A stretch of 64,000 nt of DNA. Origin: a virus. Both the position numbers and the translations under genes were made by a program. The DNA lies in the IMG/VR virus record IMGVR_UViG_3300020312_000068, positions 18,022 through 82,021 of that record; one strand, given 5' to 3'. This document shows positions 7,125-41,300 of this stretch, piece after piece; the first letter of the stretch is position 1; every line of letters starts with the position of its first letter. A model generated the notes under the pieces. It was not told where the DNA came from. It did not search any database and saw only the letters and a program-made list of their open reading frames with translations.

Positions 7125-7275
7125 ATGTTTAATTAAATGTGTATGGGCGTAGATACTCTTGGATAGTATCCTGAGAATAAAGGGTGCTTATTGAGAATAA
7201 ATCAGCGGAAATGCTAGTAAACATGCGGTGTCGTTGTGGTCTAAGGCCGTCGCCTACCAAAAGTCAAGCAGCCTT

Positions 7276-16056: not shown

Positions 16057-19000
16057 ATGCCAGTAGAGCAATCCTCGTGGAAGGTAGCGTCGTGGGTCAC
16101 CCCCTCAACTCAGGTAACAGGTGACCTAATTGACTCTACCGTATCACCAGAAAGTAGATCTAGAATTTCCGATAGAATTGAGGAACAGATTCCTCAGTTT
16201 ATCAGAGAAGATTATGGTGACTTTGTTACCTTCCTTAAGTATTACTATAAGGGATTAGAGTTAAAGGGCAATCCAGTTGATATTGTCCAGAATATAGATG
16301 AATACTACAATATAGACAAGTTAAATGAACTTGTAGAGAAGACTACATCGTCATCTGGGATAACTTCTACTACAACTACCATTGACGTTGCTAATACTAG
16401 GGACTTCCCGTCTGAAGGATTGGTAATGATCGATGATGAGATCATATACTACTCAAGTAAGTCTCAGACCCAGTTAAAGGGGTGTACAAGAGGGTTTCAC
16501 GCAACAACTAAGGTAGGTACCCTTAAGGAATTTACATTCACTTCATCTATAGCAGCATCACATGACTTTGGTGCTGATGTAATCAACCTAAACAACCTAT
16601 TACCTCTATTTTTACTCCAAAGGTTCAGAGATCAGTTTTCTGCGTCTTTCCCATCGAAGTTTGCCGAAGGAATACAGCAATCTTCCGTTACTAAGCGTCT
16701 TAAGGACTTCTATGCTGCTAAAGGTACTTCTCGTTCCTTTAAGTATCTCATTAGAGTGCTATTTGGCGTAGAGTCAACTATACAGTATCCAAAAGAGAGA
16801 ATTTTTAAGCCATCTGACGCATTCTACACTGTCAGAGAGGTTATTCGTGCTACAGCAATATCTGGTAACCCAGTAGAGCTAACTGGAGAGGTTTTATACC
16901 AAGCAAACGATCCAAATGACCCAAATGTCAACGATGCGCGGATTTATGTTAAATCTGTAGTTGAAGTCTTCACCGAAGATGGAAAAATCTACGAATTGGA
17001 CGTAGATACGGAAAATGGTGCTGGAACGTTCACTACTCCGTACAAATCAATCCTTACTGAAGATGTAAGCTCCAATTTAGACGAAGATGTCATTTCTGTT
17101 GACTCTACTATCGGTTGGCCTGAGAAAAACAGTAGTTTCCGTGTTAATAACGAGATTATTGAATATACTGACAAAACAGTTACTCAATTCCTTGGTTGTA
17201 CCCGTGCTAGACAGAATACGACCAATGCTCCTCATATTGCGGGTTCTGAAGTCAGTTCATCCTTTGAAATTTACGGATATTCCAATAGAGACCAAACTAA
17301 GATCAGTTTGAAGGTTTATGGCGGTACTAGAGGTGTTGAACTTGTTTCTGGCGGTAGATATTACCTTCAAGACTCAAAAGTCACTACTCCTGCTGCTCCA
17401 GGCTTCGATTCACTCGATCCCCTCTGGGATAGCTTCGTTTATAACGTTAAGAAGCTTGTAAACGCAACTGGGGCGGTTTTAGACGCTCCTAACAACGATG
17501 GAAGCGTTGTAGTTACAATAAGTACGGATCAAGACCATTTCTTCAAGCGTGACGACATAGTTACGATTTTAAACGCTCCAGAAGACGTATATAACTCACA
17601 ATTCCGAGTTTTGGGTGTTGGTAGCAATCAAAGCTTCCAAATCCTACTTCCTTCGACTCCAATCGCAGGAGTTAACCAAACTTTCCTCTGTGCGCGAGAA
17701 TTTGCGAAATCTACGTCTTCAGACACTTCAATTCGCACAAAAGTCGAAAATACGCCTTCTGACGTTCAAAATGTCTATAGATCTTCTGAAAACGCGATTA
17801 TTGCGTCTCCAGGAATTCCTGGACACGAAATCGGTCCATTTGGAGCTGGAGATCTAGATCCAGGCAATCAACGCTATTTGAAGCGAATTCCGCTTACTAC
17901 AATCACAAAATCGATAAAAACGGCAACTCCAGTCGGTCAAGTCGGAATTGGCGTTAATGGAGTTCCATTTTTCTCATATAAGTCGGAAAACACGAAATTA
18001 TACGGTGGAGTCAAATCTATTACCGTTATTAACCCAGGTGACGGATATGACATCACAAATCCACCAATAGTTGAATTTGAACCTATATGGCGTGCTGGAA
18101 CCAATTTTAACCTTAATCAAAGAATTAGAAACAGTTTAGGATACAGATATAAGAATATCGGTAGTGGAAAGAGTGCTGAACTTGGTAGTGAGCCAACTCA
18201 TACAAATGCTAACTTAGTACAAGATGGTTCTTGTATATGGCAATATGAGGGTATATCTGCTGAGGCAACTGTTAGTGTGTCTGGTCGTGTATATGCTATC
18301 AACGTAACTAACGGTGGTTCTGGATATACATCTGTACCTACAGTGTCTATTACAGGTGGTGGTGGGACTACACAGGCATCTGCTACTGCTACGGTTACTA
18401 ATGGTGTCGTTAATGCCATCTCAGTGACTGCTGAAGGTACTGGGTATACATCTGCCCCCACAGTCACTATTACTGGTGGTGGAGGCATCGATGCGACTGC
18501 TACAGCAGTTGTTCGTGGTGGATTGACCGCTGAGGGTATTACAATAACAAATCCTGGATCTAACTATGATACTAGACCATTTGTTACTCTAATATCAGGT
18601 AGTGGTGCTGTTGCTTATCCATCTATTGTTAATGGTAGAATTGTTTCTATCATCCTGACATTTGGTGGTAGTAACTACTATGGTCCTCCTGACGTTGTTA
18701 TTACTGGTGATGGTGTTGGTGCTGTTGCTTTTGCGACTATTGATGGAAGTACCCAGACAGTTACCTCTGTTACTGTCACTAATGGTGGTATTGGATATAC
18801 TGCTGGTAAAACATTTGTAAATATCGTTTATCCAGGATCTGGTGCTACTTTCCAGGTTGAACTTCCAATATTAACCGAAAATACTGCTGCTACTCCAGAA
18901 GAACTTGGTGTAACTACAAATGAACTTGTAGCACCTAAAACAGCTGACCTTAATAATGGAGTTTCCATTAAAGGTGCTAACTACGGAATTTATGGTGGGG

Positions 19001-22000
19001 AATATGGATATCTTTATAACCCAAGAAGGTTACGTTTCCTTTTAGGAGATAACGTTAGTGATAATGCCACTAACTCAGAATTAAACCCAACTAGACATTC
19101 TCCTATTCTTGGATGGGCATTTGACGGTCATCCAATATACGGTCCTTATGCTTATGTTGATAGAGAGAATAAGAATCCATATAATCAGCTAACTCAGATG
19201 AGAAGCTCTTATAGGGTAAAATCTAGTAGAGATGCTTTGATTACTGGTCTAACTGACCAAATGGGTAAGTATATTGAAGATTATGAGTATATCGAAGGAT
19301 CAGGTGATCTTGATCAATATAATGGAAGATATTGCGTAACCCCAGAATACCCTGGTGGTGTATATGCTTATTTCTGTACACTAGATGGTTCTACAGGTAA
19401 TCCTAAGTTCCCATACTTTGTTGGTCCTGAGTTCTATTCACAGGCAGATAGTATTAACTGGAAGGGTAATGGACTACAGAGGAACTTCACAGAAGATGCT
19501 TCAAGATATAAGCGTCCCTACATCTATACTGATACATCTATTGTTAGGAGAAAGGAATTAGGCGATCCTGTTGAATATGTTCTTGCTATGGAGGATGCTA
19601 CAACTCCTTTAGTGCTAGAGAGTGATGATGGTGATGGAACAGATATTGAGTTTATTGGATTTGTTGATATTGGTATTGGTTACTATGACTACTTCCCAAC
19701 TATTAAAGGTGGTGCTGTAGATTCATTATTTGTTTCTGCTACTAATAGGTATTTCTCATCTGGTTTAGATACTTATCTTATCGAAGGTGCTGGATTTAAC
19801 TATAAAGTCAATGATAGACTTATATTTGATGAAACAGGTACTGGTGGATCAGGTATATCTGCTAGAATCTCACGTATTACTGGTGCTGCTGTTAATACCT
19901 TATCATATTCAGTGGATTCTACTACTGATGTCATAACTGGAACTATGGGAACAGCAGATGCCCATTATATCAAACCAGGTGAAGGTATAGACATCTCTAT
20001 TGGTAATAACTTAATTACAAGAGATATCAAGACTAAGGTTATTACAACCAATAATGTTGATGTATATCACTTTAAGTATTTTGATTTAACAAACTTCTAC
20101 ATCAGTTCTCCAGGTAGAATAGTACAAGCTAATTTAACCATTACTGGTGGTGAGAGTTATACTAATGGTACATATAATGGTGTCATCCTAACTGGTGGTA
20201 GTGGAACAAATGCTTCTGCCAATATTACAGTTAGTGGTAATGAAGTCACAGCAGTCTCTATACAGAATCAAGGTAAGAATTATGTAGATGGAGATGAGTT
20301 AACATGTGCTGCCACTGCTATAGGTGGTACTGGTAAAAACTTTAAAGTTGATATAGGTAACGTACTTAAGACAGGTGGTATATCACAAGGATACTGGACA
20401 TTCTTTGCTGGTAGTGGTGGAGTACCTGGTACATACACTAAAGTACCTCTTAAGAACGCTTCTACGTCCTCTGGAGAGGGTGCTGAGTTCACTATAGTCG
20501 TTGCTGCTGGTGGTGGAGTAGAATCCGTAACAGTAACTAAGGAAGGTAGTGGATATTACCCTGGTGAGCAATTAGATCCTGTAGATTCTGATATTGGTGG
20601 ATGTACTGGATTCTATCTAACACCTAATGCTGTTAATCAAGAATTTACTGGTAGAGGAAGTGCTTCTCACCAGTTGAGTGTTGGTGATGAGATTGTTGTC
20701 ACAGGAACTAACCCATCTGACTATGATGGAACTCATATTGTATCTGGATATACGACTGAAAGAAGATTCCAGTTTAAGAAACCAGTAGGAATCATTACAG
20801 ATACTGCTATAGCAACGACTACTGAAGTTTTCGTCAAAGAAGCGAAATTAGATCTTATTAATGGTCATCAATACAGGTTTGATACCACAGATGCTTCTAA
20901 TGCTGGTAAGAGACTTGAATTTACCTTTGATAAAGAGAATACTAATGTATTCACATATAAGAATGTAACTGATGTTGAAAATGACCCTCAAACTGGTCAA
21001 CAACAGTCTATCACTATATCTCTAGATGATGTTCCAGGAACATTATTCTATTTTGATATTAATGGTATTAATGGTGGAGCAGGTAGTTACCTCAGTGTAG
21101 TAAATGACCCATATTTGGGATCTAATACTATTGTAACTACTCCTAGTACTACATCAATGACATTTACCCTGGCAAGAGAACCAGAAGGTAATTACAACAC
21201 AACTAATACACTATCATACGCAACTAACTCAATATTCCCTGCTGGTGGTATTGCTGCTATTAACATTGGTGACCCAGGCAGAAACTACTCTACTATTCCT
21301 AAATTTACTGGGGTAGAACGTGCTGGTGCTGGTGCTACTGCTCAATGTACAATATCAGGTGTAGTTGAGGATATCGCTGTACTTGAAGCAGGAGTTGACT
21401 ATAATGGAAGTAACCCACCTGTCATTGTTTGTTCAATGCCAGATTTCCTTGATCTAACTCTAGAACAGGTCTTTGGTACCTTTACTGTTGGTGATATTGT
21501 TATATCTCAAACTACTCTTGGTACTGATACTGCTCGTGGTAGGGTTATCTCATGGGATGCTAATACCTCTACATTAAGAGTACAACCACTTCGCAACAAT
21601 TTACAAGGTACAGCAAATCGTGGTTTCATTATGTTTACCACAGGTAATGCTAATACTAATAAGATTTTCTCTAGTTCAAACCAAGCTGTAATTGCTGCTA
21701 TAGGTGGTACCCAGGCGCAGGTTGCTGCTGTTGTTCCTTCAACTGGTCCTGAAACTGGACAGATACAGACTATTGCTGTTAACAACGGTGGAAGTAACTA
21801 TAGGACTGCTCCAACTGTTTATATTGATGATCCTTGGTATGGTGGTGTACTTACTGTAAGTATTAACAGTCAGAATACATCTGCTAACTTTACTCCTGGT
21901 ACATACACTGGTGTAACACAAGAATCTGTTGCTCCTACTGGTGGAGATAACTCTGAATTTACTATTGTTATTGATAGCAACCAAGATGTAGCATCAGCAA

Positions 22001-25000
22001 CTGTAACTACTGGTGGTAATGCTTATGCTCTTGGTGATTTAATCACTATTAATGGTGAGAAGATCACTGGTGGTGGATCTGCTGATGACTTTGTACTTAA
22101 AGTAGAGTCATTGACATTTGTTAGAAAGGCAGTTACATCTACTACTATTAATGCTTCTATTGATGAGGTAATTGTAACTAACTCTGGTTCAGGTTATCTA
22201 TCTGCTCCTGAAGTTGAGATATCTGGTGGTACTGGAATTAATGCTTCTCTGAGAGCAGAGATCATTGATGAGACTGTTAAGAAAGTTATTATAGAAAATG
22301 CTGGAACTAAATTCCAAAATCCACCTATCATAACCATTAAACAAAATTTAGGAACAGGTGCTTCTATCCTATTGAAGTCTACTGATTTGGGTAAGGTTAT
22401 CAATTTGGGTGGTGATAATATTACTTACAACTACTCACATGATAGAACCCTCAAACCTGCCGTTAACACGACTTATAACTTACAACTCACAAGAACTCAA
22501 ATCGTTGACTTCTTCACTGTTACGGATGGAGGATTCTCCTTCGTTACTAAGCCAACCATCGAGCTCGTTGGTGGAGGTGGAAGCGGTGCAGTTCTGGATG
22601 CTGTTATTGATAACGAAGTTATTCAGGGTATTGAGGTAATCAATCCAGGTAAGGGATATTCATCTACTCCTGCTGTACAGGCAAAGATGACTCATTCCTT
22701 TGTACCTTTACAGTCTAATAGTACTCTTAACTTCCCATATAACACTAAGATTCCTACAGGAACAAAAGTTAAGTTAGTTGAGGTAGATGGTGGTTTACCA
22801 GCTCCTTTACTAGAGAATACTACTTATTATGCTGTTGCTCAAACTATTGCTAATGGTTTAGCAGATAACCAGATTAAGTTGGCATCTACCTTTAGTGATT
22901 CACAAGGTGTTAACCCAACTACTATTACAATCTCTGGTGTACCTACCATTGGACCAGGTGGAACATCCACATTTAATTTAACTACAACTGACCTAGGTGA
23001 TAGTATAACTGTTACCATGAAACCAGCAACATTCTCTGTTGGTGAGAAACTATATCAAGGTACTTCTACCGATTCATTCTCTGCTGTAGGTACAGTCAAG
23101 AACTGGGATTCTAAAGGTAGGATTCTCTCTGTTGAAATTGAGCAAGGTGAGTTCTTAGCAGGACAACCTGTATTTGGTTTACAGACTAAAGCATTTGGTG
23201 AAATCCATGAATTTGATAGAGCATTAGCGAACTTTACAGTATCTCCTATTGCTACTGCTACTGCTGAGTTCAAGAGAACCACTGGTATTCTTGATCTTAA
23301 TGAACAGCGTTTATATGACTCTGATAGGTATCAGGAGTTCTCATATGTTGTTAATTCACCTGTTAATGTTAAAGAGTGGAAGAATCAGTTTAAGACATCT
23401 GCTCACCCAGCTGGATTTAAGGTATTAGGTACTCAAATAATTTCACAATCTACCTTTAAGAGGTATCGTAGGAAGTCTTATCTGAACTTATCTAACCCAG
23501 ACCTAGCAGGTTGGTGGGAACCAAGAGAGGGTGATGAGGATCAGTCATTCAATGGTACAACATACTTTACTCCGAAGCCATCTGCTTCTAACTCTGGTAA
23601 GTTGTCTAGAATTGAGAACTTCTTCTTAGGTAAACCAGATTATACTGCTCTTGTTCCAACTAATGTTCAGATTAGTGGTAAGCAGCTATTGGATGTTAGA
23701 AAGATTCTAAGTGCTGTTGTAGATAAGTTTGATAAGATACAAGATAGAACAGTTACCTTCGATGGGTCTAGTTCTTCTATAGTTTCGACAGCTAATAACC
23801 AGTTTACTATAACCAACCATGGTTTCATTACTGGTCAAAAGATTAATTATAGTGTACTCTCTGATAGGTATCAGGATGCTAGAAATCTAATAGTTGCTAA
23901 TATTGATTATATTGTAGATACCACTTCTGATTGGTTAGAAGCACAATATCCTGCTTTAACAGATGGTACTAAACCAGATTATGACAAGGCTAAGTGTTCT
24001 AGAGATATTAGGTTCTGTGTTGTTAACTGGACTAATGACTTACGTTATGGTGGTAACTCATTCTCATGGGATGTTGTAGATCAGTATATTGGCGGTGTTG
24101 GTGTATTAGGTAATAAGTATGCTGATGCTAAGTTCCTTATCCTTAAGAATAAGCAATTAATTGCTGAGGAAGCACTAGGTATGATGAAGGTGGATTACCC
24201 TGCTTTCAGTGTACATAATGGTTCTGATCAAGATTGTTACGATGATATCATCGATGTATTAGAAGCAATCTGCTATAACATGACATATGGTGGTAACAGT
24301 GAAGTATATGATGGTGCCAAGTATTATGTTGATGGTAACCATGTTGATTCTGTAGAAACTGAAGTTAACGTCTGTTTCAACCATGCTAGAGACCTTGCTA
24401 TCAAGGTAATGCAGAACTATCCTCTGACACTAGCACATTCTACTCAGCAGCAGTTCTTTGACAGTACAATAACATTTGATACTGATGGTTTTATTGATAA
24501 TAAGGTTGCTGATGCTAGAACTTTAATCCTTGCTAATAAGAATCAGATTGCTGAGACTGCTGTAGACAGGATGGAGACACAATATCCTTCTCATGCTGTT
24601 ACTGGTGGTAGGATTGAGTGTGAATATGATATTAGAGACTTTATCGACGTAATGGTCGAGAACCTTGCTCGTGGTGGTAATGATGGTGTCTGGGATGCTG
24701 CAAACTACTATGTAACAGGTGGATTTGTTATTGGCGAAGAAGCTGAATCAGCATATGCCTTTGAACAAGCAAAATTAATCACACATCTTGTTTTACAGAA
24801 TAAGACAGTATCTGATATGACAGGTCAGGTAATTGATAATAGTATTACTGTTGATCCTCCTGATGATAAGTGTACTGCTGTACAGGCAACTGTAACTACT
24901 TTATATGATATCGTTATTAATGCTATTACTACACCTCTGGATCATCAGAATGTAACTAGGACTGCTAAGACTGGTGGTAATAGAGGAGCATGTTCTTTAG

Positions 25001-28000
25001 TTGAGTCTGCTCTTACTACTCAAATGGCAATCATTACTACTGCCATAGCAAATGACAATATGAATCATGTTGTTAGGACTGAACCAGCAAATGCCATATA
25101 TCATATTGCTGGAGAGGAGACTGAGACTATTGCTGCTATTCAGTATGCTAGAGATCTATGTAAACAGGCAGTACAGAATCTACTTCCTAACGCAGATTCA
25201 ACAATTACTGAAGATACTACACCTAAGTGTACTGATGTACAGGCTTCTATTGATACTCTTGCTGAGATTATATGGAAAGGTATTGATAATCCATCAAGTA
25301 TACCTGAAAGAAACGTTGGAACATATCCTAATGTAAGAACTGGTGCTCCCGTTGCTGGTTATACCATACATGGTGCTACTAATGCTGTTTATCTACCTGC
25401 TTCGGGTCTATTCACTGTAACTGTAGCAAATCATGGATTTGAATTAGGTGAGTACGTACAGTTTGAAGATGAAACCTTCATACTTACATGTGCTTATGAT
25501 AATCATGCTACAGAGCATAAGTATCCAAGATCAACTGACCCTGCTAGTGGTAAGTGGTTGGAAATTCTTCAGATTACTAAGAATACATTCACAGTTAACG
25601 TTGGTATAAGCACCGATACATCTGTTCATAAGTATGTTTCTGCTACAGGTGTCCACACCTTTGTAAGTGGTGTCACAAATGCTATATCAGATGGTACTAG
25701 CCAGTATACGGCTGCCTCTGGTACTACCTATGATCCCGCAACTGGAGATATGGTCATCAATATTGGTGCTCATAGTCTTACAACTGCTAATACCATTACC
25801 ATTGCTAATAGTGGAATAGTATTCACTTGTGATAAGGACAATCATGCTACTAACCATGCTTATCCTCGTGCTACTGACCCTGTAAGTGGTAAGACTCTTA
25901 ATATCAGTGCTGTTGCTGCGAATACAATTACTGTTAATGTAACTCCTGCTACTAAGGTTAGAAAACAGATTCAAGATTCTGACAATTACTATGTAATTAA
26001 GGTTGATGATAATAATATTAAACTTGCTCAGTCTAAAGCATATGCTTCTGCTGGATATCCAGTAGAGTTAACTGGTCTATCCACTTCTAATCAGCATAAA
26101 CTCAGACTTAGATTTGATGGTGAGACTACTGACTTCCAGACCAGATATAGGGATGCTGCGGTATCACCAATTAATAAGAATATGCTTATGGTTTCTATTA
26201 ATGGTATTATCCAGAACCCTGAGTCATATAGTTTGAGTGGTAGTACAATTACATTCAGTGAAGCTCCTAAAGAGGATTCTGAGTGTATCATAATGTACTA
26301 TAAGAGAAATGATATTTCTACAAACTTCCAGTTAGATCAGTTTGGTGATGTTATTGCTACTCTTGATACAGCAGATGGTCTTTATCAAGGTTCAGGATAT
26401 ACTCCTGGTACATATAGCGGTGTATCTTTAATCAATAAGAGAGGTAACACTGGTACTGGAGCAACTGGTAATATTACAGTCACGAATGTTCTTGAGGGTG
26501 CTACTCACAACGTCAATAACCAGTATGCTGATGCTCGTGTATTGATCAATAATAATGCTGAGATAATTGCTGATATTGCTGTTGGTCTACTTAACAAGTA
26601 TGGTACTCCTACTGATAATAGAGTAGCAGATGGGGCAAACCTAATTCTCATGAACAAGGATTTCATTGCTAAGGAAGCAGTGGAGAGAATGCATAATGAT
26701 ATACCTTACACTATACCTTCAAGTAGAGAGTTAGATGCTTACAACTTACTACAAGGAAATAGAGAGTTTCTAGCATGGGAAGCATATCATTTATTCAGTA
26801 CTATTGATTATCCTGGATATACTCATGCTCAAGGATATACACCTCAAGATTGTGTAGATGATGTTCTTGATATCATAGATGCTGTATCATTTAACTTAGT
26901 ACATGGTGCTAATAACAAGGTATATGATGCTGCTTATTTCTACACTGGTGCTTATGAGAGTGGTAGTGTTATTGCTGGTGAGGAGCAACAAACTCTTGCT
27001 GTTATAGGTCAGTTAAGGAACTTGATGTATAAGGTTGTGACTAATGAGTTAGTTACAGTTGGTGGAAGTCATGGATATACTCAGTATACAGAAGATACTA
27101 CTTATATCTTTGATGGTTGTGTCACAGTTAAGAACACTATTAACACCTTATTGACTATCATCGAGACTGCTATTAATACTGACTTAATGGTACATGTCAC
27201 TAAGACAGAACCTACTCTATTTGTTGAACCAACAGGAGATAGTCAGGACTGTGTAGATGATGTCGTTGACTGCTTAGAAGCTATTGCTATTAACATGAAG
27301 TTTGGTGGTAATAGTGAGGTATATGATGCTGCTAAGTATTACGTTGATGGTGCTCACGTTGCTGGTGAAGAGATTCATACCATCTATGCTTTCCGTGAAG
27401 CAAATAAGATAGCACAAGAAGTCATTAAGCAAAATGCTGTTACTGTACAAGGTACACATGGTCTTACTCAGAAATATGATGGTGGTTTAACAAGACTATC
27501 TGGTAATCCTTGTGCTACTGTATGTTCTACAGTTGATACTCTTTGGAATATCATTGAAGTAGCAGTTAATACTAATTCTATGAGTACGTTCACTAGAACT
27601 GCTCCTACTGGATTTACTGTTCCTGGTCTTGGTCCTAGCCAATGTAAGGCAGATACTGTTGATGTTCTACAAGCAGTTGGTGTCAATATAGCATTCGGTG
27701 GAAACCACATATTATACGATACTATCAATATGTACTTCGTTGGAAACCATGTTTCTGGTGAAGAGACAGAGACTAAGTACGTATTTGAAGAAGCACGTCA
27801 AATGGTGCTTAAAGCAATTAATAATGAATCTTTCGATACATATGACCATCTAAATCTTACCGATAAGCAACAGTTTAAGGATACTTCTATTACAGCGTAT
27901 TCTACAACTCAGACTGCTTCATTCACTCCTACAGCAGCAACTTATACACAAGCTAATGGTCTACTAGAATTAACCATTGGATCACACACTTTAACGGTTG

Positions 28001-31000
28001 GTAGTCGCATACAGATTGCTGATGGTTCATTGAAGTTTAAGTGTGCTATGGATGATAGCATAACTCATCATGCTTATCCTAGATCTACTGATTTCGCATT
28101 CGGTAAATCTATTCCTATTACAGCAGTAACAGGTACAACAATTACTGTTAACGTAGGAAGTACACCTCAGGTTCTTTTCAACGTCACTGACGGGTCATAT
28201 GACCCCACTACAGGTCATTTAGACCTACAGATAGTAAATACCAGTTTCACTCCAACTGCGGGTAGTTACGTTCCTTCTACAGGACTAATGACCCTTAATA
28301 TTGGTTCTCATAGTTTGATAAAAGGTGAGCATGTATTACTCGCTCCTGGTTCACAGATATTTACCTGTGATATGGATGAGGATTCTACTGATCATGCCTA
28401 TCCTAGACTTACAGATCCAGTTTATAACAAACCAATTAAGATTGAGGATGTATCTGGTAATAACATAGTATTGGATGTAGGTAAATCACCTCAGGTTACT
28501 CATGATGTAACTAATGCCCAGTATACTCCTAATACTGGTATCATGAACTTGACTATTGGTAACCATTTACTCAAAGTAGGTCAAACTGTAAAACTTAGTG
28601 GATTAACATTCCAGTGTAATCAGGATCAGTATAGTGGTGATCATGTATATCCTAGATCTACTATTGAAACACATACAGCTACCAATGCTTCCTTTAATAC
28701 ACAAACAGGTATTGTTACTATAACCGTCAATTTCCATGGAATGAGAGATGGTGATTGGGTTAAGTTAGATGATGGTGCTCTCACATTTACATGTACACAA
28801 GGTGGTGGTACACATGCTTATCCTCGTCCTTCAGATCCTATATCTGGCAAGTGGGTACAAGTATCTAATACAACCGCAACTACATTTGATATTCAGTGCT
28901 TAGAGAACGTTCCATGTACTAATGCTACTGTTCATTCATTCCACACAGCAGCTACTGATGGAATTAAACAGAAGAAGGATAGGGCATATAACAATGCTGT
29001 AGAAATTCTAGCAGTTACTGATACAACTATAAACGTTAATGTCGGTATCTCTTCTAACACCACAACTCATAGATGGAAGCCTGGATTTACTGCTACTGCT
29101 GGTGTTATTAGTGGTGGTGATCATACTCATACTTGGAAGTCTTCTAAGGCAAATTCAGTCATATTACCTCATGGATTTAGACCTCAGAGAATACTAACTG
29201 TAGAGACTGCTGCTTATAATCCTACTACAGGTATTATGACATTGACTGTACCTGATCATAATCTAACTTCTACTGATGAGATTAAGATTAAGGATGATTC
29301 ATTATCATTTACATGTACTCATGGTGCTGGTACTAAGACATATCCTAGGGCATCTGATCCAGTAAGTCAGAAGTGGATTACTGTAGGAAATATCACTAGA
29401 GATACATTTACAGTACAGGTTTTAGATTCTACACCTTCTACTAACGTAACTGCTCATACATTCGTATCTGCTCTTGCTGATGGTATCACTGTTAAAGGAC
29501 AGACTATCAAACTTGCTGATGGTTCTATCACAATGACTTGTGATATGGATGATCACTTTACTGACCATGCTTATCCAAGAACAGGAACTATAACACATAC
29601 AGTTACTGATGCTAGTTACAATCCAACAACAGGTATATTAACATCTACTATTAATGATCATGGAATGGTTTCTGGAGACTTCGTTAAGTTCGCAGATGAT
29701 TCATTAACCTTTACTTGTACTGAAGGTGCTGGTAATCATACGTATCCAAGATCAACAGACCCTGTAAGTGGTGCTTGGTTAGAGATAAGTAACGTCACTT
29801 CTAATACATTTGATGTACAGGTTCTTGATGCTCTACCTTCAACTAATACTACAGTCCATACATTCGTAAGTGCCACTTCAGGTGGTGTCACACAAAAGAT
29901 TGACAGAGCATATGATACAGCACTTCAGATTGTTGAAGCAACTCCTGATCGTATTACTCTTGATGTAGGTAAGACCCCAACGGTTACTCATACTCCAACA
30001 GCTGCTACTTACAATGCTGCTGCTGGTACTATGGAAGTCACCATTGGTGCTCATAAGTTAAGAACTGGTACTACAGTTAAGATGCTAGAAGGTGCTGTTA
30101 CCTTCACATGTGATGAGGATGCTGATGCTTCTAACCATGCTTATCCTAGATCTATCGTTGATGGACACCAGGCAAGTGCTGTTGCTTATAACCCAACAAC
30201 AGGTGTAATGAGTGTAACCAGCAATGGACATGGATTACGCAATGGTGATTGGATCAAGTTAGCTAAGGATAGCTTCAAGTTTACATGTACTCATGGTGAT
30301 TCTGGTAATCACACATACCCTAGAGTAACTGATCCATTCTATGATAAGTGGATTCAGGTAAGTAATGCTTCTAATAACGCATTTGATGTACAAGTTCTAG
30401 CAACTCAACCATCTACGAATACTACAACTCATACTTGGGTATCTCCTACAGGAATGACACCTACTGATGCTTCTTATAGTGGCACAACAGGTATTATGAC
30501 CTTGACTGTTTCTGGTCATGGTATGGAAAATGGTGATATGGTTAAACTTGACGATGGTGCTATAACATTCAAGTGTGACTATGGATCAGGTGTTCATACA
30601 TGGCAAGGTGGTGTTGCTAACAACGCTGTAAGTGATAACTTAGGGCAACAATATAACGTAAGTAATGCTGATTACAATCCAACTCTCGGTACATTAGTAT
30701 TGACTATTGGTAGTCACTCACTGACAACTTCCAATACTGTACAGATCGTTTCTGGATCATTAACATTCAGTTGTGACGCAGACTCTCATGCTACTAACCA
30801 CACATATCCAAGAGCAACAGACCCTGCTAATGGTGCTACACTCGCTATTACTGATGTAGATGTAACAACAATTACAGTTAATGTTGGATTAGCAGAGGGA
30901 TCTGGTACTGCTTATCCTAGAGGAACTAGAGCAGAATATACTGCTGCTGGTGGATCTACATACGATCCTGCTACAGGTTTAATGGTTGTTACAACAACTG

Positions 31001-33804
31001 TCAACCATGCTATTAATGTTGGTGATGAGGTTTTATTTGACGACGGTGCTATAACATTCAGTTGTAACTTTGGTGGTGCTTCAGGTGCTGCTGCTCAGAA
31101 GTCATACCCACGTAATACTGACTATGCTAGTGGTAAGTGGTTAAAGGTTCATGCTAAGACTGCTAATACATTTACTGTACAGGTATTAGATACAATACCT
31201 TCTACTAACACTGATGCTCATACATTTGTATCTGGTGTTACTAATGCTATCAATGTAAGAGACCCTCTAAGTGGTAGATTCGTTGAGATCTTTAATGTAA
31301 CACAACATACTTTCGATATTCAAGTCTTAGATACTATTCCTTCTAGCATATCTTCTAATCATACATTTGCTTCTGCTGTATCTAACTCTATTCAGAGAGC
31401 AGAAATTAGAGCGAAGCGTGACAGATCATTCGATCATGCTGTTAATATTTCAGCGGTGTCTGCTACTACTATTACATTAGATGTTGGTATATCTTCTCAT
31501 GTATCTCCACATCAGTTTGTATCTGCTCTAGCTGATAGTATCATTACTGGTGGAAACCATGCTCATAAGTTTAAGAGTGCTTCAGCAGGTGCTGTAATAA
31601 CAGGTGGATCATATAACCACACATTCTTAAGTGCTGATTCTGGTGCTGTCTTGAATGGACAGTGGGGATGTACTCATGTACAGGCTTCTGTAGATACTTT
31701 GATGGATCTAGCATATACCGCTATACATCAGGGTAACTTCAGTGGAATTACAAGAACGGTAGGTCAGTGTGGTGACGGTTATGAAACTGCACCAACTATA
31801 TCTGTAAGTGGTGGTACACCTACTACTGCTGGTACTCTTGTTCCAATATTATCTGACGAAGGATATATCAAGAAGATTGATCTTATCGCAACAGGAGCTG
31901 GATACAACAATGTACCTACTGTAAAGATTACATCTAATACTGGTTCAGGTGCTACTGCCACTGCTGCTGTTGCTGCTGGTGCTCTTACTGGTATTACCGT
32001 AACTGAGGCTGGATTTGGATATGATGATGTAACAGTTGAAATCATTAAGAACGCTGCTGATACTATTACAACTACAGCTACTGCTTTTGCTACTGTTGGA
32101 AGATACTTAGAAAGGATTGATGTACAAACTACAGGTAAAGGATATAATTCTGCCCCTGCTGTATCAATTAGTGGTGGTACACCTGCTACTGCTGCTAGTG
32201 GTGGTCTTAGCAGACTAACTGGAGCAGTAACAGATGTTGCTCTCGTTTCTGGTGGAGATGGATATCAAGATACTGATGTATTAGGTGCTAATGCTGCTGA
32301 TATTGGTGGTACAGTCACAAATTCCTTCCAGGTTGAAGTTGACACAGTAACCTTTAATGGAGTTACTACACAGTTTGCTGCTACTGTTGGTGGTACTGGA
32401 TATAACCTACCTGCTAATGATAGATTCTTATTATTCTTGAACTCTACTATACAGAAGGTTTCTACTTCTTACACATATACAGGCACACCATCTACTATTA
32501 CCTTCTTGGAAGCTCCTAAGGGTAATATGGACTTCTACTGCTTCTATGTTGGACAGTTACAGGATATGGATGATCTTTCACCATACTTTAATGGAACTAG
32601 AAAGACATTTATCCTTAAGAAGAATGATCAACCATTCTCACTTGAATCTGATTCAACAGAAGTTGTAACAGCAAATAATATTGTTATGTTCTTGAATGGA
32701 ATATATCAGGAACCTGAAGTTGCCTTTACTCTTAATGGTTCTATCCTTGAGTTTAGTGAGGCACCTAGATCAGGTACTGACGTATCAATTCTAATCTATA
32801 CTGGATCTAATCTTGATATAGTAACTGAAGATACTTACAACTGTATTGACCCTGGTGATTTACTACAGATTGAGTCCGAGGGAGACATACGTACACTTGC
32901 TACTGTTGCTAGTTCCTCCTCATTAGATACATATGAGTATACAGGACTACGACCAACTGTTGCTGAGTTTACTGCTGTAATTTCTGGTGGTAAGGTCGTT
33001 GACGTGATTATCACTAATCCAGGTTCTAATTATGAAGTTGCTCCATACCTACTATTCAATGGTGGTGGTGGAACTGGTGCTTTCGCACAGACTGAAATAT
33101 CTGTAGGTAGTGGTCAAGTTATAGCGGTAACCAATCTAGAGGGTGGATCCGATTATAATACTGTTCCTTCTGCTACAGCATATCATCCTATAGCACTTGA
33201 AAGAACACAGAGGGATAGGGCAATATCTAATGTCAACTTCTTGTATACAACTCATTTGGATGCTTCTTTAACAGCAACTGATACTACAGTTAATGTTCTT
33301 AATGCTTATTATAATGCTGGAATTGGATTCCCATCCCAGGGTGAGATATTAATTCCATATTGGAATGCTGTTGAATCTGTATGGGGTGCTGAAAGAATCC
33401 TATATGGTTCTGTTGATTACTCAACTAACCAGTTTACAGTTACTACCAATGGTAGAGGACATCAAGATACGGGTCCATCGTTAGGTGTTGGACACGTTAT
33501 CAATGTTGAAACTGGAACTTATTCCTCTGTGATTAAGAGTGGTGATGCTTGGACTAATGGTATCCAGACTTCCTATAAAATGAGTGAGGTTACTGCTACT
33601 ATGGCTGCTAACCACAATCGTGAAACTGGTGAGGAAGTATACATTCAATTCTTATCTGGTACTGTTTCTGGTACAGATTTAGATGGAACTTATAAGATAA
33701 AGAAAACGGGAGCAACGACCTTCACGGTTGAGATCCCAGTAGCACTAGCTGTTAGTGGACAGAATCTACAGATTCTTCCAACAGTTCGTGTCTACACCGT
33801 ATAA
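16057..33804 (+). CDS. gp7: giant baseplate wedge initiator gp7 (5915 aa) with inserted YHYH-like, globin/phycobiliprotein-like and beta-repeat domains
   Basis: [57 protein letters not shown]; lies between gp6 and gp8. Confidence 0.88.
23866..27840 (+). repeat. helical repeat domains (DA.xLI..N...C.xD...GGN...GEE...C..V), 6 copies in gp7
   Basis: Clusters at 23866-25290 and 26521-27840; the last closing helix is at about 31663-31740. Confidence 0.85.
25370..31660 (+). repeat. beta repeat (Y.P.TG...HG...TFTC..H..YPR.TDP...HTFVSA), 14 YPR copies in gp7
   Basis: Counted from the translation. Confidence 0.88.
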
Positions 33805-33827: not shown

Positions 33828-35351
33828 ATGGCACTTGTAACCGACAAATTTAGAATTTACGCAGCCGAGGCGTTTAGAAACACTCTCGGTAGCACTGGTT
33901 CGGACGCAAACAAAGTTTATTTGTTTGTTGGTCGTCCGAAAGCTTGGGGTAATCCTGATTCCCCACCTACTAATGAGCCTATTGACTCATTCACATATCA
34001 TAGACAGACGTATGGTGATTCGGTTGCTTTTAAGCGAGTAGATATTACTGATACTTCTCTCGTTGTACCTAGAGTAGATTGGATTGATCCCACTGAAACA
34101 ACTGGTGGTACTGGACGTACATATTCTATGTACAAACCAGATTACAGTCCTGCTAAGACTACTGCCAATGGTGCTACTCGTCTATATGATTCAAACTTCT
34201 ATGTGATGAACTCTGACTTCAACGTGTACAAATGCTTGTACAATGGTCAGTCTCCCACATACCCTAGAGGAAGACCCTCACTGATTCAACCAACAGGAAC
34301 ATCAACCACAGTTATTGAAACCAACGACTCATCTGAGTATAAGTATCGTTGGAAGTATATGTATACTATTGACGCTGATAATATTCTAAAATTCGTTACT
34401 ACAGAGTTTATTCCTGTAATTGAGAATTCTCTAGTACAAGCTGCTGCTGGTGCTGGATCTATTGATACTGTTGTTATTGAAAATGCTGGTCAGGGTTATA
34501 ACAATGATACCTACACTAACGTACCTATTCGTGGTGACTGGTCAATCAATGGTGGAACTCAAGCATATGCTTCTGTTACGGTAGAGTCTGGATCTGTAAC
34601 TAACGTTACTGTTACTAACTCTGGATCTAAGTATAGTTTCGGTACTATTGATGTTGGATTAATCCCTAACATTGGAGCTGGTGGATCGGGTGCTGACCTT
34701 GATGTCATTATCCCTCCTAATGGTGGACATGGTGCAGATGTTATCAGAGAGATTGGTGCTTACCGTCTTATGTTTGCTTCCAAACTAGAGACATCTACTG
34801 CTTTCGTTGACTTCCCAACTGACCTTACATTCCGTAGAGTTGGTTTGGTACTTAATCCATATGATTATAAAACTACTACAATATCTGATCAGAATACAAG
34901 ATCTGCTATTAAAGCAATGATCTTCCCTCAGTCTGGTACTGGTATGCCTAGTGGAACCTTTACTGCTGGTACTACTATCACACAGAATACCACAAATGCT
35001 AAGGGATATATTGTTTCTTATGATTCGACTACGAAAGTATTGCGTTATTATCAAGATTCAACTGATGGATTAACTTCTGGAAATATTGTTGAGTTCAGTG
35101 GTAACTATGAGATTACCTCATCAAACCTTATAACTGCTACTCCTAACCAGACATTTGGTACATCACAAAACCCAGTTACACAGATCACTATTGGTGTATC
35201 TGTATACGAACTAGGTCTTTCATTTGTTGAAGGATATGCTAACGGAGAGGTTGAAATCAACTCTGGAGAAATCCTCTACATAGACAATAGGAACCCAATA
35301 ACCCGATCTGCGGATCAGAACGAAGAGCTCAAAGTAGTAATTGAATTCTAA
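33828..35351 (+). CDS. gp8: baseplate wedge subunit gp8
   Basis: YLFVGRP.AW, VVPRVDW, FYVMNSDFNVYKCLYN, YRWKYMYTI, SGEILYIDNR.PITRS.DQ.E..K.VIEF. Confidence 0.92.
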   Translation: MALVTDKFRIYAAEAFRNTLGSTGSDANKVYLFVGRPKAWGNPDSPPTNEPIDSFTYHRQTYGDSVAFKRVDITDTSLVVPRVDWIDPTETTGGTGRTYSMYKPDYSPAKTTANGATRLYDSNFYVMNSDFNVYKCLYNGQSPTYPRGRPSLIQPTGTSTTVIETNDSSEYKYRWKYMYTIDADNILKFVTTEFIPVIENSLVQAAAGAGSIDTVVIENAGQGYNNDTYTNVPIRGDWSINGGTQAYASVTVESGSVTNVTVTNSGSKYSFGTIDVGLIPNIGAGGSGADLDVIIPPNGGHGADVIREIGAYRLMFASKLETSTAFVDFPTDLTFRRVGLVLNPYDYKTTTISDQNTRSAIKAMIFPQSGTGMPSGTFTAGTTITQNTTNAKGYIVSYDSTTKVLRYYQDSTDGLTSGNIVEFSGNYEITSSNLITATPNQTFGTSQNPVTQITIGVSVYELGLSFVEGYANGEVEINSGEILYIDNRNPITRSADQNEELKVVIEF

Positions 35352-38300
35352 ATGGCACAGAATACGAATCTAAACATATCTCCCTATTTTGACGACTTTG
35401 ATGACGACAAAGGGTTTTTAAAGGTATTGTTTAAGCCTGGATTTCCAGTACAGGCAAGAGAACTAACTACACTCCAATCACTCCTACAGAACCAGATAGA
35501 CACGTTTGGTCAAGGTGTGTATAAAGAGGGTAGTATGGTGGTACCTGGTGGTACTACACTTAATAGGAATTATCCTGTTGTTTTAGTTCAGAATAACTAT
35601 CTGAACCTACCTTTAGAATTGTATAGAGATTCACTTAACGGCAAGGTTGTGAAGGGTGCCACTTCAAACATCCGTGCTAGAGTTAATTTTTCAATCAGTT
35701 CTACAGAGTCAACTCGTGGATATGTTTCATTCTATATTACCTATCTAACTAAAGCAGATGATAATGTAACCAGTGTATTCCAAGCTGGTGAGATATTAAC
35801 TTGTGAGGAAGATATTACTTATAGTACCTCTACTATTGTTGCTGGTACTCCCCTTGCTCAACTATTAAACTCTAATAGTACTGCTGTTGGTTCTACTGCC
35901 AACATTGGTAAAGGTGTTTACTTTGTTCGTGGATACTTTGTACCTGTAGCAGAGCAGACTTTAATACTTGATCAATATTCTAATACTCCATCTTATAAGG
36001 TTGGACTTAAGGTAGAAGAGAGAATTATAACTGCTGATGAGGATGCTACCCTATATGACAATGCTATAGGTAGCACAAACTTCTCAGCACCAGGTGCAGA
36101 TAGATTTAAAATCAACCTAACCCTAGTTAAGAAAGCACTTGCTGATCCTAACTCTGCTGACTTTATTGAACTCTTACGTACTAACGTTGGTAAGATTGAG
36201 AAGAAAGTTGAGCGTAGTGATCTTGGGTTTATTAATGATATACTTGCCACTAGAACTAAAGAAGAGTCTGGTGACTATTATGTCAAGAGATTTAGTGTTG
36301 ACGTAAGGGAGAACCTTAACGACGCATTTAATAATGGGGTCTTTACCAGTGATCAGACCACACAGGATGGTGCTACACCTACTGAGGATAAGCTTGCTGT
36401 ACAAGTCTCTCCAGGTACTGCTTATGTTTCTGGTTATAGAACAGAGAAACTAGCAAATACATTTAAGGATTCGGACAAGCCCCGCACATTTACTGCTGCT
36501 GATTCACAGTCTATTACTTCAGACTTTGGTAACTATGTTCTGATTAGTAATCTGTTCGGTGGTGTTCAATTATATGATACTGTTAGTTTACATAATGAGA
36601 AGATTGCTACTGGTGGTAACGCAAATGGTGACACCATAGGACAAGCAAGAGTTTTTGGATTCTCATTTGAGAGTGGTGCTAGAGATACTACTGCTACAAA
36701 ATATCAACTTGCTTTAGCAGATGTTGATCTGTTTACAACTGTTACTATTGGTAGTACTGCTATAGTAGGAGATAAGAAGTATGTTGGTATGACATCTGGT
36801 GCTACTGGATATTCTAGGACCAATGGTACTGTTACTTCTGTTACCTTTGAACAGGTGACTGGTAACTTCGCAGTTAATGAGACTATTGCTTTAGAAGAGA
36901 ATCCTACTGCCAGTATTGCTACTATCAGTGCTGTTACTTCTTATCAGTTTACTGACTGTAAGTCATTCTATAAGGCTGGATTTACTGCTGATATAGATTT
37001 AGATCTTAGATCAACTGTAGCTGCTAATGCTCCTGTATTAAGCAGTACATCTGGTAACGCAACTGCTACTTTAACTGCTAGTCTATCTAATTTCTCAGCA
37101 CAGTTGAGGAAGAATGATGTACTTGCTATCAGTAACAATAACTTGTCACATCAGGTTAGAGTCACTAGCATAACAAATGCTGGTGAGATCGCTATTGAAA
37201 GGATCACCTCAAATAATTTAAACGATGGAGCAATCAGTGGAAACATCACATTACTCAGACCACAAATTAGGGAAGCTCAAAAGAGAACACTTATATCGGC
37301 AATTCCGAAAGCTGCCGTTAAGTCTACTTCCACTAACAGCTCTGGTAGTTCTGTTGCCCCTCTCGGATACTTCAGAAAGTCCTATTCAGTATCCGTTACT
37401 GGAGGAGCATTCTCCCTCTCTGCAGGATCTAATCTTACCTTCAGAGATCCCACAGATGGAGATGACTTCCAAGTCATTGCCACTGCTGGAACCAATGCGG
37501 GTACCTCTTACACCGTAGGTAATGGTATAGCAACCACTTCTAACCCAGGTGATGCTAGTGCTTCTATCACTGGATTAAATGCTGGTACTTCAGCTGCTAT
37601 TGTTATAGCAACTGTATACTCAAGTAATAGAACTGCGAAAGCAAAGACTACTGAGCGTATGAAGGTGCTTAGAGTCGATCATACTTATGGTGCTAGTGCT
37701 AATGGTTTAACACAAACTACTGCTGGTTATGGACATAGATTAGAAGATAAGTTTATATCTCTTGGATGTGCTGATGTATTCTCACTGAAGGCTGTATATG
37801 AGTCATCTAATTCTGATGATCCTGTAATACCTAACTGTGGTTATAGTAACCTTATAGGTAATTTTGCGATAGGTGATATATTAACAGGTGCTGAATCTGG
37901 TGCTAAAGCACAGATCGTATCATTTGATAGTACCACAGTGTACTATGTAATGTTGAATAAGAATGCTTTCTCTGGAGAGGAAGGTATATCTACTCCTGAT
38001 GCTAGTGGTAAGATTACTCTTGGAACCATTAAAACTGGTAGTGCTAATATCACATCATCGTTTGACTTAGATAATGGTCAAAGAGAACAGTATTATGATT
38101 ATTCTAGACTTGTAAGGAAGTCTGGTTATGCTGCTCCTACACGTAGAATCTTAGTTATCTTCGATAGATTCTCCACAACTTCTGGAGATGGATTCTATAG
38201 TGTTGATTCCTATTCTTCTGATGATTATAAAGAAATACCTACCTTTGGTACAATTCCATTAAGAAACGGTTTAGACTTCCGTCCAATGGTTCCTGCTGCC

Positions 38301-41300
38301 ATCTCAGGGTCAGGTACAAGGCTATCACCATTCTTACATTCTTCTAATGATTATTTTGGTTTCAGTACTAGAGCATTCACTGGTAACCTTGTAGGTCTAC
38401 CAGGACAGGCAGATACCACTATTCTTTCCTATGAGTATTACCTAGGTAGAATAGACAAACTTAGCATGAATAAAGATAATAAGATTATCATTGCTAAGGG
38501 TGAACCATCTGAGACTCCTGTCGAACCATCTGATCCAGAAGACGCTATGCTTCTGGCAACTATTACTATTCAACCTTATGTCTTTGATATTGATGAAGAT
38601 GTCACTATCACACAGACAAACTTTAAGAGATATACATTTAGAGATATTCAACAGCTTGAGCACAGAATCAAGACTCTTGAATACTATACACAGTTATCAC
38701 TACTAGAAGCTGAGACTGCTACCTTTGCTGTTAGAGATAGCAATGGTATGGATAGATTTAAGAATGGATTTATCGTTGATAACTTTGCGTCACTAGCAAC
38801 CAGTGATACATTCCACCCTGACTATAGAGTATCAGTTGACTTTGATGAGGGTCATTTACGTCCTTCCCACTATACAACTAACCTTCCTCTGATTGTTAGT
38901 TCCACCTCTACTAATATTCAACAAACAGGTGATCTAGTAACACTACCATATACTGACTTAGTATTGGTTGATCAACCTTATGCTTCTGCTTTAGAGAATG
39001 TAAACCCATTCAACGTCTTTACTTTCATTGGAGATATTAAATTAACTCCAGAAACTGATGACTGGGTAGACACTAAGACACTCGCTGCTATCCAAGGACC
39101 AGTTGTAGAAGGTAACTACATGACAACTGTTAGAGAGTTTGGTGCTGATCAGAATGGTCTAACACCTATTCAGTGGGGTTCATGGCAGACAACATGGTCT
39201 GGTACTGTATGGCAGACACGTCAAGTCACAACAGGTAAAGGTAAGAACAGACGTACCAGAACTGAGAGATTCTCAAGAGTTAGAACAGATCAGTCAAGAA
39301 CTGGTATTCGCCATAGTATTACACCTATTATTGAACAACAGAGTCTTGGTAACAGGATTGTATCTGTTGAGCATATTCAAAATATGCGTTCTAGGAACAT
39401 TGAATTTAAGGGTGAGAAACTCAAGCCAAGGACACGTTTCTATGCTTTCTTTGATGGTGTAGATGTTAAGGCATATATCACTCCTAAACTTCTTGAGGTA
39501 ACTAAGAATCCTAATGATGATTCTGATACTAACTCAACTCCTTTCCAGGTTGGTGAGACAGTTAAAGGTCTTACATCTGGATGTACACTAAGAATTTTGG
39601 AACCTAACCATGAGCACAATACAAACCCATACACAGGTACAAGTATTTCCTCAGTTTCAGATTACACTGCCAACCTGGCATGGATTAATCTTGACACTAA
39701 CGCTCTCGCTGCTCAAGCTCTCGGAGCTTATTCTGGCAACCCAATCCCTAATGAGATCTTGGTTGGACAGTCTTCAGGTGCTCGTGCGAAAGTTAAAGAG
39801 AGAAGATTAATTACAGATGGTGCTGGATTCCTGAAGGGAACATTCTTTATACCAGAACCTAACGTATCTACTAATCCTAAGTTTAAGACTGGTACACGTA
39901 TCTTCCGTCTATCTGATACAACTAATGATTCACAAGTACAAGGTGAATCAGAGTCTAGTGCTCAGACAGAATACTCTGCTACTGGTATTCTCCAGACTCA
40001 GCAGGAAACTATTATTTCTGTACGTAATGCTCAAGTTGATGAGCAGAGATTTACACAGAACAGAACCTTATGGTCTGACCCTCTTGCTCAAACATTCTTG
40101 ATTCAAGATGAGGACTTAGAAGGTGGTGTATTCTTAACTAAGATCGATCTATTCTTCCAACAGAAGGATTCTGAGATCCCAGTTGCTATTGATATTCGTA
40201 CCGTAGAAAATGGTACCCCAACACAGGTAATCGTTCCATTCTCTAAGGTAATCAAGAAGGCAGCTGACGTAGTTACATCAGCAGATGCTTCTACACCAAC
40301 AACATTTGTATTTGAGTCTCCAGTATTCATAGGACATCAACAGGAACATGCTATTGTTGTCACATCTGACTCAAACCAATATAAAGTATTCATCTCACTT
40401 CTAGGTGAAGATGCTATTGATGCTGCTCACGCAGGAGAGAAGATCTCTGAGCAGCCATATATCGGTGTTCTATTCAAATCACAGAACGCTTCTACTTGGA
40501 CACCATCTCAGTTTGAAGACTTGATGTTCAAGATCTATAGAGCAGACTTTACTCTACCTACTACTCTTGCTCAGTCTAAGTTGATTCTTAACAACGCAAC
40601 ACTGGAAGAGAATAATGGTGGATTTGTAAGTGCTCTACCAAACGCCTTTGCCACAACTGATGATCAGGCATATGTTGATGTCTTCCATAGCAATCATGGT
40701 ATGCAATCATCTGCTAACTATGTTGTTGTAGATGGTGTTAAATCTGAAGTTGGTGATACCACACTTAAAGTTGCTCTTGCTGCTTCAGGTGTATCACAGA
40801 TAACAGTACAGAATGCTGCTAACTTCCATCTTTGTATAGGTGGTAACGCAACACAAGCTGCTAGTTTAAATTCAGGAAATACTGGACCAGGTAATGCTGC
40901 TCCTGCTGTTTCCAATACAAACCCAGGCTTTGTTAAGATCGGTGATGAAATTATAGCTTATGAGCATATCAATACAGGTTCTCCTGATTGGATTATTGAT
41001 ATCTTAGGACATAATGCTGCTTCTGTAAGTGGTAGAAATTGGGATCCTGTTACTAATTCAGGTTCTGCTACAGGTACTGCTCATCTTATAGAGGCTACCG
41101 TAGAGTGTTATAACCTTGCTGGTATACCTCTGACAAAGATTAACGGTACACATCATACATCTACATTTGGTGGTCTGACTTCTTTAAATAGTCCACACAA
41201 ATATAGACTAAACATTACTGGAGTTAAAGCACATAAAACAATCAGTGCTGGAGGGGATGGTGTAACCATTTCCCAAAACATACCTTGGGATGTGCTAACT

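Follow-up and report, generated by a model that had tools for sequence, protein, structure and literature searches.

Baseplate proteins of phages can gain host-facing modules by loop insertion while their core fold is kept in the baseplate, as in the Dit and Tal proteins of lactococcal and related siphophages, which carry inserted carbohydrate-binding modules ('evolved Dit'). A loop insertion is likewise found within the phycobiliprotein domain of ApcE, the core-membrane linker. Insertion becomes recursive in Si3 of the cyanobacterial RNA polymerase beta' subunit RpoC2, for which passages of a 2026 survey describe six levels of hybrid-motif domains inserted one into another (PMC13114784), and the crystal-structure report on Si3 describes four of the eight motifs as composed of segments far apart in the sequence (PMC10895346). 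Here we analyse a comparable arrangement in a virion protein. The window, a stretch of 64,000 nucleotides (nt) taken from positions 18,022 to 82,021 of the IMG/VR virus record IMGVR_UViG_3300020312_000068 (82 kb in all), contains a single uninterrupted open reading frame (ORF) of 5915 amino acids (aa), 16057-33804, that encodes a gp7-like baseplate wedge subunit (phrog_2885, gene order as in Prochlorococcus phage P-HM1). The region of interest, 23866-31740, lies wholly within this ORF; the phage is a T4-like cyanomyophage, and the region makes up the hypervariable middle of its gp7-like protein. All features of the window described below lie on the + strand, and positions are those of the window unless stated otherwise.

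A preliminary description of this DNA had claimed that the domains between 23866 and 31740 are inserted in each other rather than arranged in tandem. Our sequence comparisons give good support to growth by recursive loop insertion because the parts of interrupted domains cover complementary ranges, close in last-in-first-out order and break at confined points, because related proteins form a depth series, and because whole guests are present or absent among relatives. The middle of gp7 appears to be assembled from two recurring modules, a five-helix domain of about 165 aa and a beta unit of about 100 aa, with new copies placed in surface loops of existing copies and not in tandem. Each host domain would be cut into an N-part and a C-part flanking its guest, and a guest could itself turn host. 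The nested architecture A1-B1-C-B2-A2, as passages of the survey define it, comprises an interrupted host with complementary parts that pack into one fold, and a complete guest that lies wholly inside the gap and may in turn be a host (PMC13114784); gp7 displays the complementary parts and the complete guests, and packing of the host parts is predicted. As in Si3, one domain type has been repeatedly inserted in loops of its own kind, with some copies continuous and others put together from widely separated stretches of the protein. The Si3 domain, however, is an all-beta sandwich-barrel hybrid motif in the trigger loop of an enzyme and its nesting is documented by structures, whereas the gp7 modules, one helical and globin-like and the other a beta unit, belong to a virion protein whose nesting is read from sequence. 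In gp7, moreover, two module types appear to host each other, depth varies among close relatives, and the nested region extends to about 1750 aa in one domain tree. Pfam searches revealed no sequence relation between the gp7 modules and Si3.

The helical module was traced with a hidden Markov model (HMM) built at first from two contiguous copies and finally, at 168 positions, from 94 unique contiguous copies gathered from 115 loci; E-values of helical fragments refer to a search against gp7 alone. The final model matches 11 fragments in gp7, which fall into two clusters. Helices of cluster 1 open at nt 23866/23875, 24124 and 24511. The N-part of domain A, with the first helices and the first invariant cysteine (23860-24102; aa 2602-2682; HMM 3-81; E 4.8e-24), is followed by the N-part of domain B, inside A (24109-24486; aa 2685-2810; HMM 3-130; E 8e-44), and this by domain C, complete and contiguous inside B (24496-24972; aa 2814-2972; HMM 3-167; E 3e-61). 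Then come the C-part of B, consisting of the last helix with the second cysteine (24985-25089; aa 2977-3011; HMM 132-167; E 3e-7), and the C-part of A (25099-25305; aa 3015-3083; HMM 80-157; E 1.2e-21).

Cluster 2 opens at 26521 with two domains represented by their first helices only, domain a (26512-26595; aa 3486-3513; HMM 2-29; a weak match, E 2e-4) and domain b (26611-26706; aa 3519-3550; HMM 2-33; E 6.8e-9). These precede the complete domain c (26719-27216; aa 3555-3720; HMM 3-167; E 2e-57), the remainder of b (27220-27609; aa 3722-3851; HMM 35-167; E 1.5e-41) and the middle of a, which lacks the last helix (27604-27912; aa 3850-3952; HMM 32-133; E 5.4e-26). The last helix of a, bearing the second invariant cysteine, was found 1250 aa downstream of the rest of its domain (31663-31758; aa 5203-5234; HMM 132-164; E 1.7e-5). 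The preliminary description had placed the outermost closing helix of cluster 2 similarly far downstream, at about 31670, and the coordinates and motifs that it quoted for both clusters are all present in the gp7 translation. The same helix was also detected (record position 49678-49779) in an independent search with alignment A4, made from 18 diverse contiguous helical copies. That search returned the same gp7 fragments at E<=0.001, minus the weak first helix of domain a; pieces equivalent to this helix are present in orthologues.

The fragments complement one another in range: 3-81 and 80-157 for A, 3-130 and 132-167 for B, 2-29, 32-133 and 132-164 for a, and 2-33 and 35-167 for b. Each helix occurs exactly once per domain in all six gp7 domains, and the linkers between neighbouring fragments measure 0-5 aa. 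B lies wholly within A and b within a, the guests C and c are complete, and the split domains close in last-in-first-out order, the reverse order noticed in the preliminary description. Split and unsplit copies alike have kept the invariant residues, with 12 of 12 invariant cysteines and six of six C-x-x-D motifs retained in the gp7 translation. Parsed in this manner, the helical tree of gp7 is three levels deep.

Beta units were located with HMMs of 95 and then 102 positions. They measure about 100 aa and occur both complete and split at HMM 54-56, right behind an invariant Y-P-R. A tree of such units (27922-31542) stands ahead of the last helix of domain a, and it includes three cases of a split unit around complete units. 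The first (28504-28662, HMM 2-56, and 28972-29091, HMM 55-97) encloses 28672-28968 and the second (29494-29586, HMM 26-56, and 29899-29991, HMM 56-90) encloses 29596-29892. The third (29989-30153, HMM 1-55, and 31420-31542, HMM 57-100) forms the deepest beta nest, of two levels: it encloses a complete unit at 30166-30453 together with an inner split unit (30454-30588, HMM 1-45, and 31258-31395, HMM 56-101), which holds two units of its own at 30655-30897 and 30946-31254. Two further beta units follow cluster 1 (25372-25947), one complete (aa 3106-3201) and the other without its last strand (aa 3219-3297); both are missing from the same place in the relatives L009, L012, L015 and L027-L029.

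The closing strand of the beta unit conforms to the motif H-x-[FWY]-x-[ST]-[AGPS], which occurs 13 times in gp7 compared with 0.6 expected from 500 shuffles. Four of the 13 are orphans standing behind units that stop short of the last strand, and by last-in-first-out order they would be assignable to such units. An orphan strand similar to HKFKSA and HTFLSA lies at 29128-29145, and some beta units have neither a last strand nor a visible closer. The strands HQFVSA, HKFKSA and HTFLSA follow one another at nt 31510, 31564 and 31618, the latter two being extra closing strands that a motif search finds after the last split unit (31564-31635). The preliminary description had regarded this pile of strands as a sign that the beta repeats nest as well. 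The split units around complete ones agree with it in this respect, but the last two strands of the pile (aa 5170 and 5188) are too short for HMM significance. We found no convincing relative of the beta unit by sequence: a profile search of the Protein Data Bank (PDB) gave one match, iota-carbonic anhydrase (E 0.0025, no single stretch significant), and Pfam gave nothing under E 0.006.

The same nesting recurs in the next giant ORF of the window (52452-63998, 3' end open). There the helical and beta HMMs detect, within 55662-62921, helical fragments covering HMM 4-131, 2-32 and 2-166, then about 1800 aa of beta units, and then helical fragments 35-166, 131-166 and 39-166. Order statistics come from a stack parser applied to 114 proteins of 71 distinct architectures; their sources are the window, contigs of IMG/VR and of metagenomes, and the phages P-HM1 and S-PM2. 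Continuation fragments fitted the most recently opened domain in 106 of 115 instances. Where at least two domains with differing break points were open, last-in-first-out order fitted 40 of 43 fragments and first-in-first-out order six of 43. Break points were likewise confined, as 205 of 218 interrupted ends fell in HMM 28-46, 75-88 or 106-135, three zones that make up 63 of the first 149 HMM positions; 12 of the remaining ends lay in 136-149, one in 47-74, and none in 1-27 or 89-105.

Maximum helical depth reached 5 or 6 in several contigs. Stacks deeper than those of the window were seen in the metagenome contigs L055, L056, L057, L053, L103 and L112; in one example four openers of HMM 2-128 lead to one complete copy and then to a run of four or five last helices, and in another five levels with different break points all close last-in-first-out. 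The array of L103 reads 13-112, 4-78, 3-38, 3-40, 3-166, 32-84, 80-159, 41-156, 75-156 and 120-156.

Several points weigh against reading these proteins as recursively inserted trees. The remaining nine of the 115 continuation fragments do not fit the top of the stack. The order counts are inflated by shared ancestry, since many of the proteins are orthologues and so not independent; single-linkage BLAST clustering into families merged 101 of the 114, paralogous modules cross-matching, and visual inspection distinguishes six or more architectures. Two pieces have low scores, namely the first helix of domain a (7.6 bits) and the beta piece at aa 4042-4065 (0.4 bits), a candidate for the start that the unit at aa 4480-4510 lacks. 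Sequence leaves the pairing of openers with closers undecided where break points are equal, as they are for domains a and b in cluster 2 and for the beta nest of two levels, and mirror-tree comparisons ranked the last-in-first-out pairing 8 of 24, 1 of 6, 4 of 6 and 2 of 6 in L055, L056, L057 and S-PM2 p091, respectively. In such nests, which include cluster 2 and, in relatives, stacked arrays of 2-128 or 2-40 openers, crossed pairing would yield an interlocked chain and not a tree; the HMM coordinates at identical break points are compatible with it, and the mirror-tree ranks did not favour the last-in-first-out alternative. Yet last-in-first-out order prevails wherever break points differ, and the very short linkers would make crossed topologies sterically hard. 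We therefore hold crossed pairing to be highly improbable.

Comparison with relatives revealed the tree at different depths. At the position of cluster 1, where the flanks on both sides align well, L017 and L027-L029 have an uninterrupted domain A (depth 1), L015 and L060 have a domain A with one complete domain inside it (depth 2), and the window and 16 other unique relatives of 44-85% identity have a domain A with B inside it and C inside B (depth 3). Two other loci, L089 and L090, were excluded from this series as non-orthologous, their flanks failing to align. L015 and L014, of depth 2 and 3, respectively, are 84% identical over 316 aligned columns, L015 being one domain's worth shorter. 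Behind the first cysteine motif the insert of L015 is mosaic relative to L014 and divergence is abrupt, which suggests recombination between nested paralogous copies; the outer domains of the two are nearly identical.

The insertion of a beta unit into a helical host could be seen in L002, which is 78% identical to the window over cluster 1. Exactly in the loop ahead of the last helix of domain c, this relative has an additional, complete beta unit of about 106 aa (locus-frame aa about 2086-2191). Its flanks align with few differences, and neither the window nor L001 has an insert in this loop. L002 and L007 are on the same contig. Together with the fragment order, the break-point zones and the orthologues of depth 1, 2 and 3, the insertion in L002 supports the earlier proposal that the protein grew by recursive loop insertion; the branched antenna that this proposal also envisaged is a hypothesis.

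Mean pairwise identity among 17 orthologues was 0.70 and 0.69 for the two halves of A, 0.59 and 0.56 for the halves of B, and 0.55 for C. The two halves of one domain evolve at the same rate, and identity falls from outer to inner, the innermost domain C being the most variable of cluster 1. These data bear on the possibility that the fragments are decayed partial duplications, left over from unequal recombination among tandem repeats and serving as linkers only, with an incidental bracket pattern. Recombination among paralogous copies clearly does occur, as the mosaic insert of L015 illustrates, and the beta units lacking both a last strand and a closer would suit such an origin. Leftovers, however, would hardly match in rate between the halves of a domain, be conserved like whole copies, present each helix once per domain and keep the invariant cysteine and aspartate in every fragment, nor would their break points avoid helices and their informative members so consistently close last-in-first-out. 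An origin by decay is thus highly improbable.

Another arrangement would preserve the half-domains as functional parts but pair them with halves from neighbouring gp7 chains, by three-dimensional domain swapping. A T4 virion contains its baseplate wedge proteins in multiple copies, and pairing within a chain and between chains is indistinguishable from sequence. Nevertheless, linkers of 0-5 aa and strict last-in-first-out order are predicted by insertion within one chain and are not required by swapping, and whole guests come and go among relatives while the host halves remain unchanged. Intermolecular complementation therefore seems improbable to us.

Recursive loop insertion is the likely explanation of the architecture. 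Guests would reside in loops of their hosts, and the two parts of each host would fold together, with the guest projecting from it like a branch. The resulting tree would have between four and six levels in relatives, and also once its beta branches are included. With both chain ends anchored in the baseplate, outward-facing modules could be gained or lost, and the innermost, fastest-evolving modules would be exposed tips, probably in contact with the host.

Nesting had also been expected to hide such domains from linear HMM searches. This is true of the shortest pieces, the 30-aa first helices and the last strands, which come near noise, but local HMMs find the other fragments easily. Pfam searches of long segments gave no match in the nested region. 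The silence of Pfam on the window's copies reflects sequence divergence, because even the contiguous copy C has no match to the phycobiliprotein family PF00502 at E<=1. Six of the 18 diverse copies match PF00502 at that level, and two of the five with scores, both from relatives, exceed its threshold of 22.2 bits (27.4 and 23.8 bits); the window's own copies do not reach it, the best PF00502 match in the phage's own record being 14.9 bits.

Profile A4, whose invariant positions are N14, C42, D45, G60, N62, Y72, E81, N102 and C126, gave a clearer answer. Its best matches among PDB sequences were phycocyanin beta (6jpr_B, E 5.9e-7; 1ha7_B, 1.3e-6) and phycoerythrin beta (7t89_B, 2.7e-6), and among the 60 matches listed all were phycobiliprotein chains except one row named 'bacterial fluorescent protein beta'. 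A4 positions 3-62 align with beta-chain residues 35-101, placing the invariant C42 and D45 on the C-I-R-D of phycocyanin beta, its bilin site (C-x-R-D). The invariant C126 falls on the G-D-C-S cysteine of the beta chain (beta Cys-153), in a weak collinear second stretch only. The insertion hot spot at HMM 28-46 aligns with the loop ahead of the bilin-cysteine helix. The module lacks seven residues preceding that helix and also the N-terminal X/Y helices, by which the alpha-beta monomer is built, as alignments and module alike start at beta residue 33-36. A search for small proteins with A4 yielded 27, mostly fragments from short contigs; none is named a phycobiliprotein and one bears a precomputed PF00502 label. 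These profile comparisons show the helical module to be phycobiliprotein-like, a distant relative of the globin-like phycobiliprotein core. It resembles phycobiliproteins in its PDB profile match, the cysteine and aspartate of the bilin site and the second cysteine, and differs in the absence of X/Y helices, in its virion setting and in having no known pigment.

The surroundings of the gene agree with its assignment. All 16 window ORFs of at least 150 aa are carried by the + strand. The four ORFs of the baseplate block, 14182-16053 (623 aa), 16057-33804, 33828-35351 (507 aa) and 35352-42017 (2221 aa), agree in order and size with gp6, gp7, gp8 and VrlC of P-HM1, whose gp7 has about 4446 aa, and the 5915-aa ORF thus occupies the gp7-type position between gp6 and gp8. 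Its PHROGs match is phrog_2885, 'baseplate wedge subunit' (E=0). Pfam PF23786 (baseplate wedge) matches gp7 in two pieces of 21.6 and 17.7 bits, both under the cut-off of 27. The pieces are complementary, aa 192-249 (16630-16803) corresponding to profile positions 164-221 and aa 2417-2457 (23305-23427) to 234-278, and lie about 2170 aa apart, a hint that the whole of gp7 follows the logic of insertion; the core gp7 fold itself may be split by a giant insertion. A YHYH domain (PF14240; aa 981-1110, 18997-19386; E 1.5e-26) is also located inside gp7, amid runs of GGSGY-type repeats.

Relatives in the phage collection were detectable at the protein level only, as megablast of the region found no DNA-level match there. 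A translated search matched 342 records, each below 60% identity and each named as a cyanophage (Synechococcus 274, Cyanophage 57, Prochlorococcus 10, Marine 1). The top-ranked matches were the gp7 genes of P-HM1, P-HM2 and MED4-213. These genes and S-PM2 p091 share with the window's ORF the gp6-gp7-gp8-VrlC position and the same modules, at a best identity below 40%. P-HM1 gp7 has both helical and beta modules, its two helical copies being found both contiguous, and S-PM2 p091, a giant 'tail fiber' protein, has three stacked first helices, a complete copy and three remainders. Database annotations of relatives read 'baseplate wedge subunit', 'tail fiber protein' or 'hypothetical protein' and give no domain architecture. 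Cluster 1 itself is 100% identical in the metagenome contigs L036 and L049.

The conserved bilin-site residues raise the question whether the nested helical modules carry pigment on the virion in the manner of functional phycobiliproteins, forming a light sensor with covalently bound bilins. Bilins made by phage-encoded HO1, PebS or PcyA would then be attached to the two invariant cysteines by a lyase, possibly the phage CpeT-like protein, and the chromophore array on baseplate and fibres would act as the sensor. In hosts, CpeT-type lyases serve the beta Cys-153/155 site. The phage's own record encodes a CpeT-like protein outside the window (record positions 6968-7156; PF06206, 36.5 bits, above cut-off, E 2.2e-10); the complete relative behind L030 also encodes one. 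Passages of a genomic study list a CpeT-like gene in most of 16 cyanomyophages and term the role of phage bilin-synthesis genes a mystery (PMC3037559).

Among phage records the module was found only in those of cyanophages (342 of 342 matching records). It has six matches in P-HM1 (NC_015280), 13 in S-PM2 (NC_006820) and none in P-SSM2 (NC_006883). According to the portion of the adsorption study consulted, P-HM1 and P-HM2 fail to adsorb in the dark whereas P-SSM2 adsorbs, and the light-dependent adsorption of S-PM2 is independent of host photosynthesis, with light-sensitive tail fibres possibly involved (PMC6628666). Presence or absence of the module in P-HM1, S-PM2 and P-SSM2 parallels these reports, although three phages amount to an anecdote. 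The seven residues missing from the module belong to the bilin pocket, which argues against pigment binding, and no coloured virions are on record in the literature searched. A pigment-carrying function is thus unlikely. If it were true, the chromophore array would account for light-dependent adsorption in P-HM1, P-HM2 and S-PM2 that does not rely on host photosynthesis.

Domain insertion is widespread, and its recursive form as a kind was already known. New are its setting in a virion protein, the two modules that appear to host each other, the scale, and the turnover of depth between close relatives. In the evolved Dit and Tal proteins, insertion is of a single level and concerns an unrelated module, unlike the recursive self-insertion of gp7. 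The literature searched contained no description of this architecture or of phycobiliprotein-like domains in cyanophage virion proteins, most subscription journals and supplements being outside the search.

After Si3 of RNA polymerase, gp7 would be the second natural case of deep recursive self-insertion. It offers a reading rule for the giant unannotated structural proteins of cyanomyophages, which may be understood as trees of few modules and not as strings of beads; domain callers that expect contiguity will miss or mis-split such proteins. Furthermore, a phycobiliprotein-like module with both pigment cysteines would link virion structure to two puzzles, the bilin-synthesis and lyase-like genes of phages and light-dependent adsorption. 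As depth changes among close relatives, these phages probably use module insertion to remodel the surface that faces the host.

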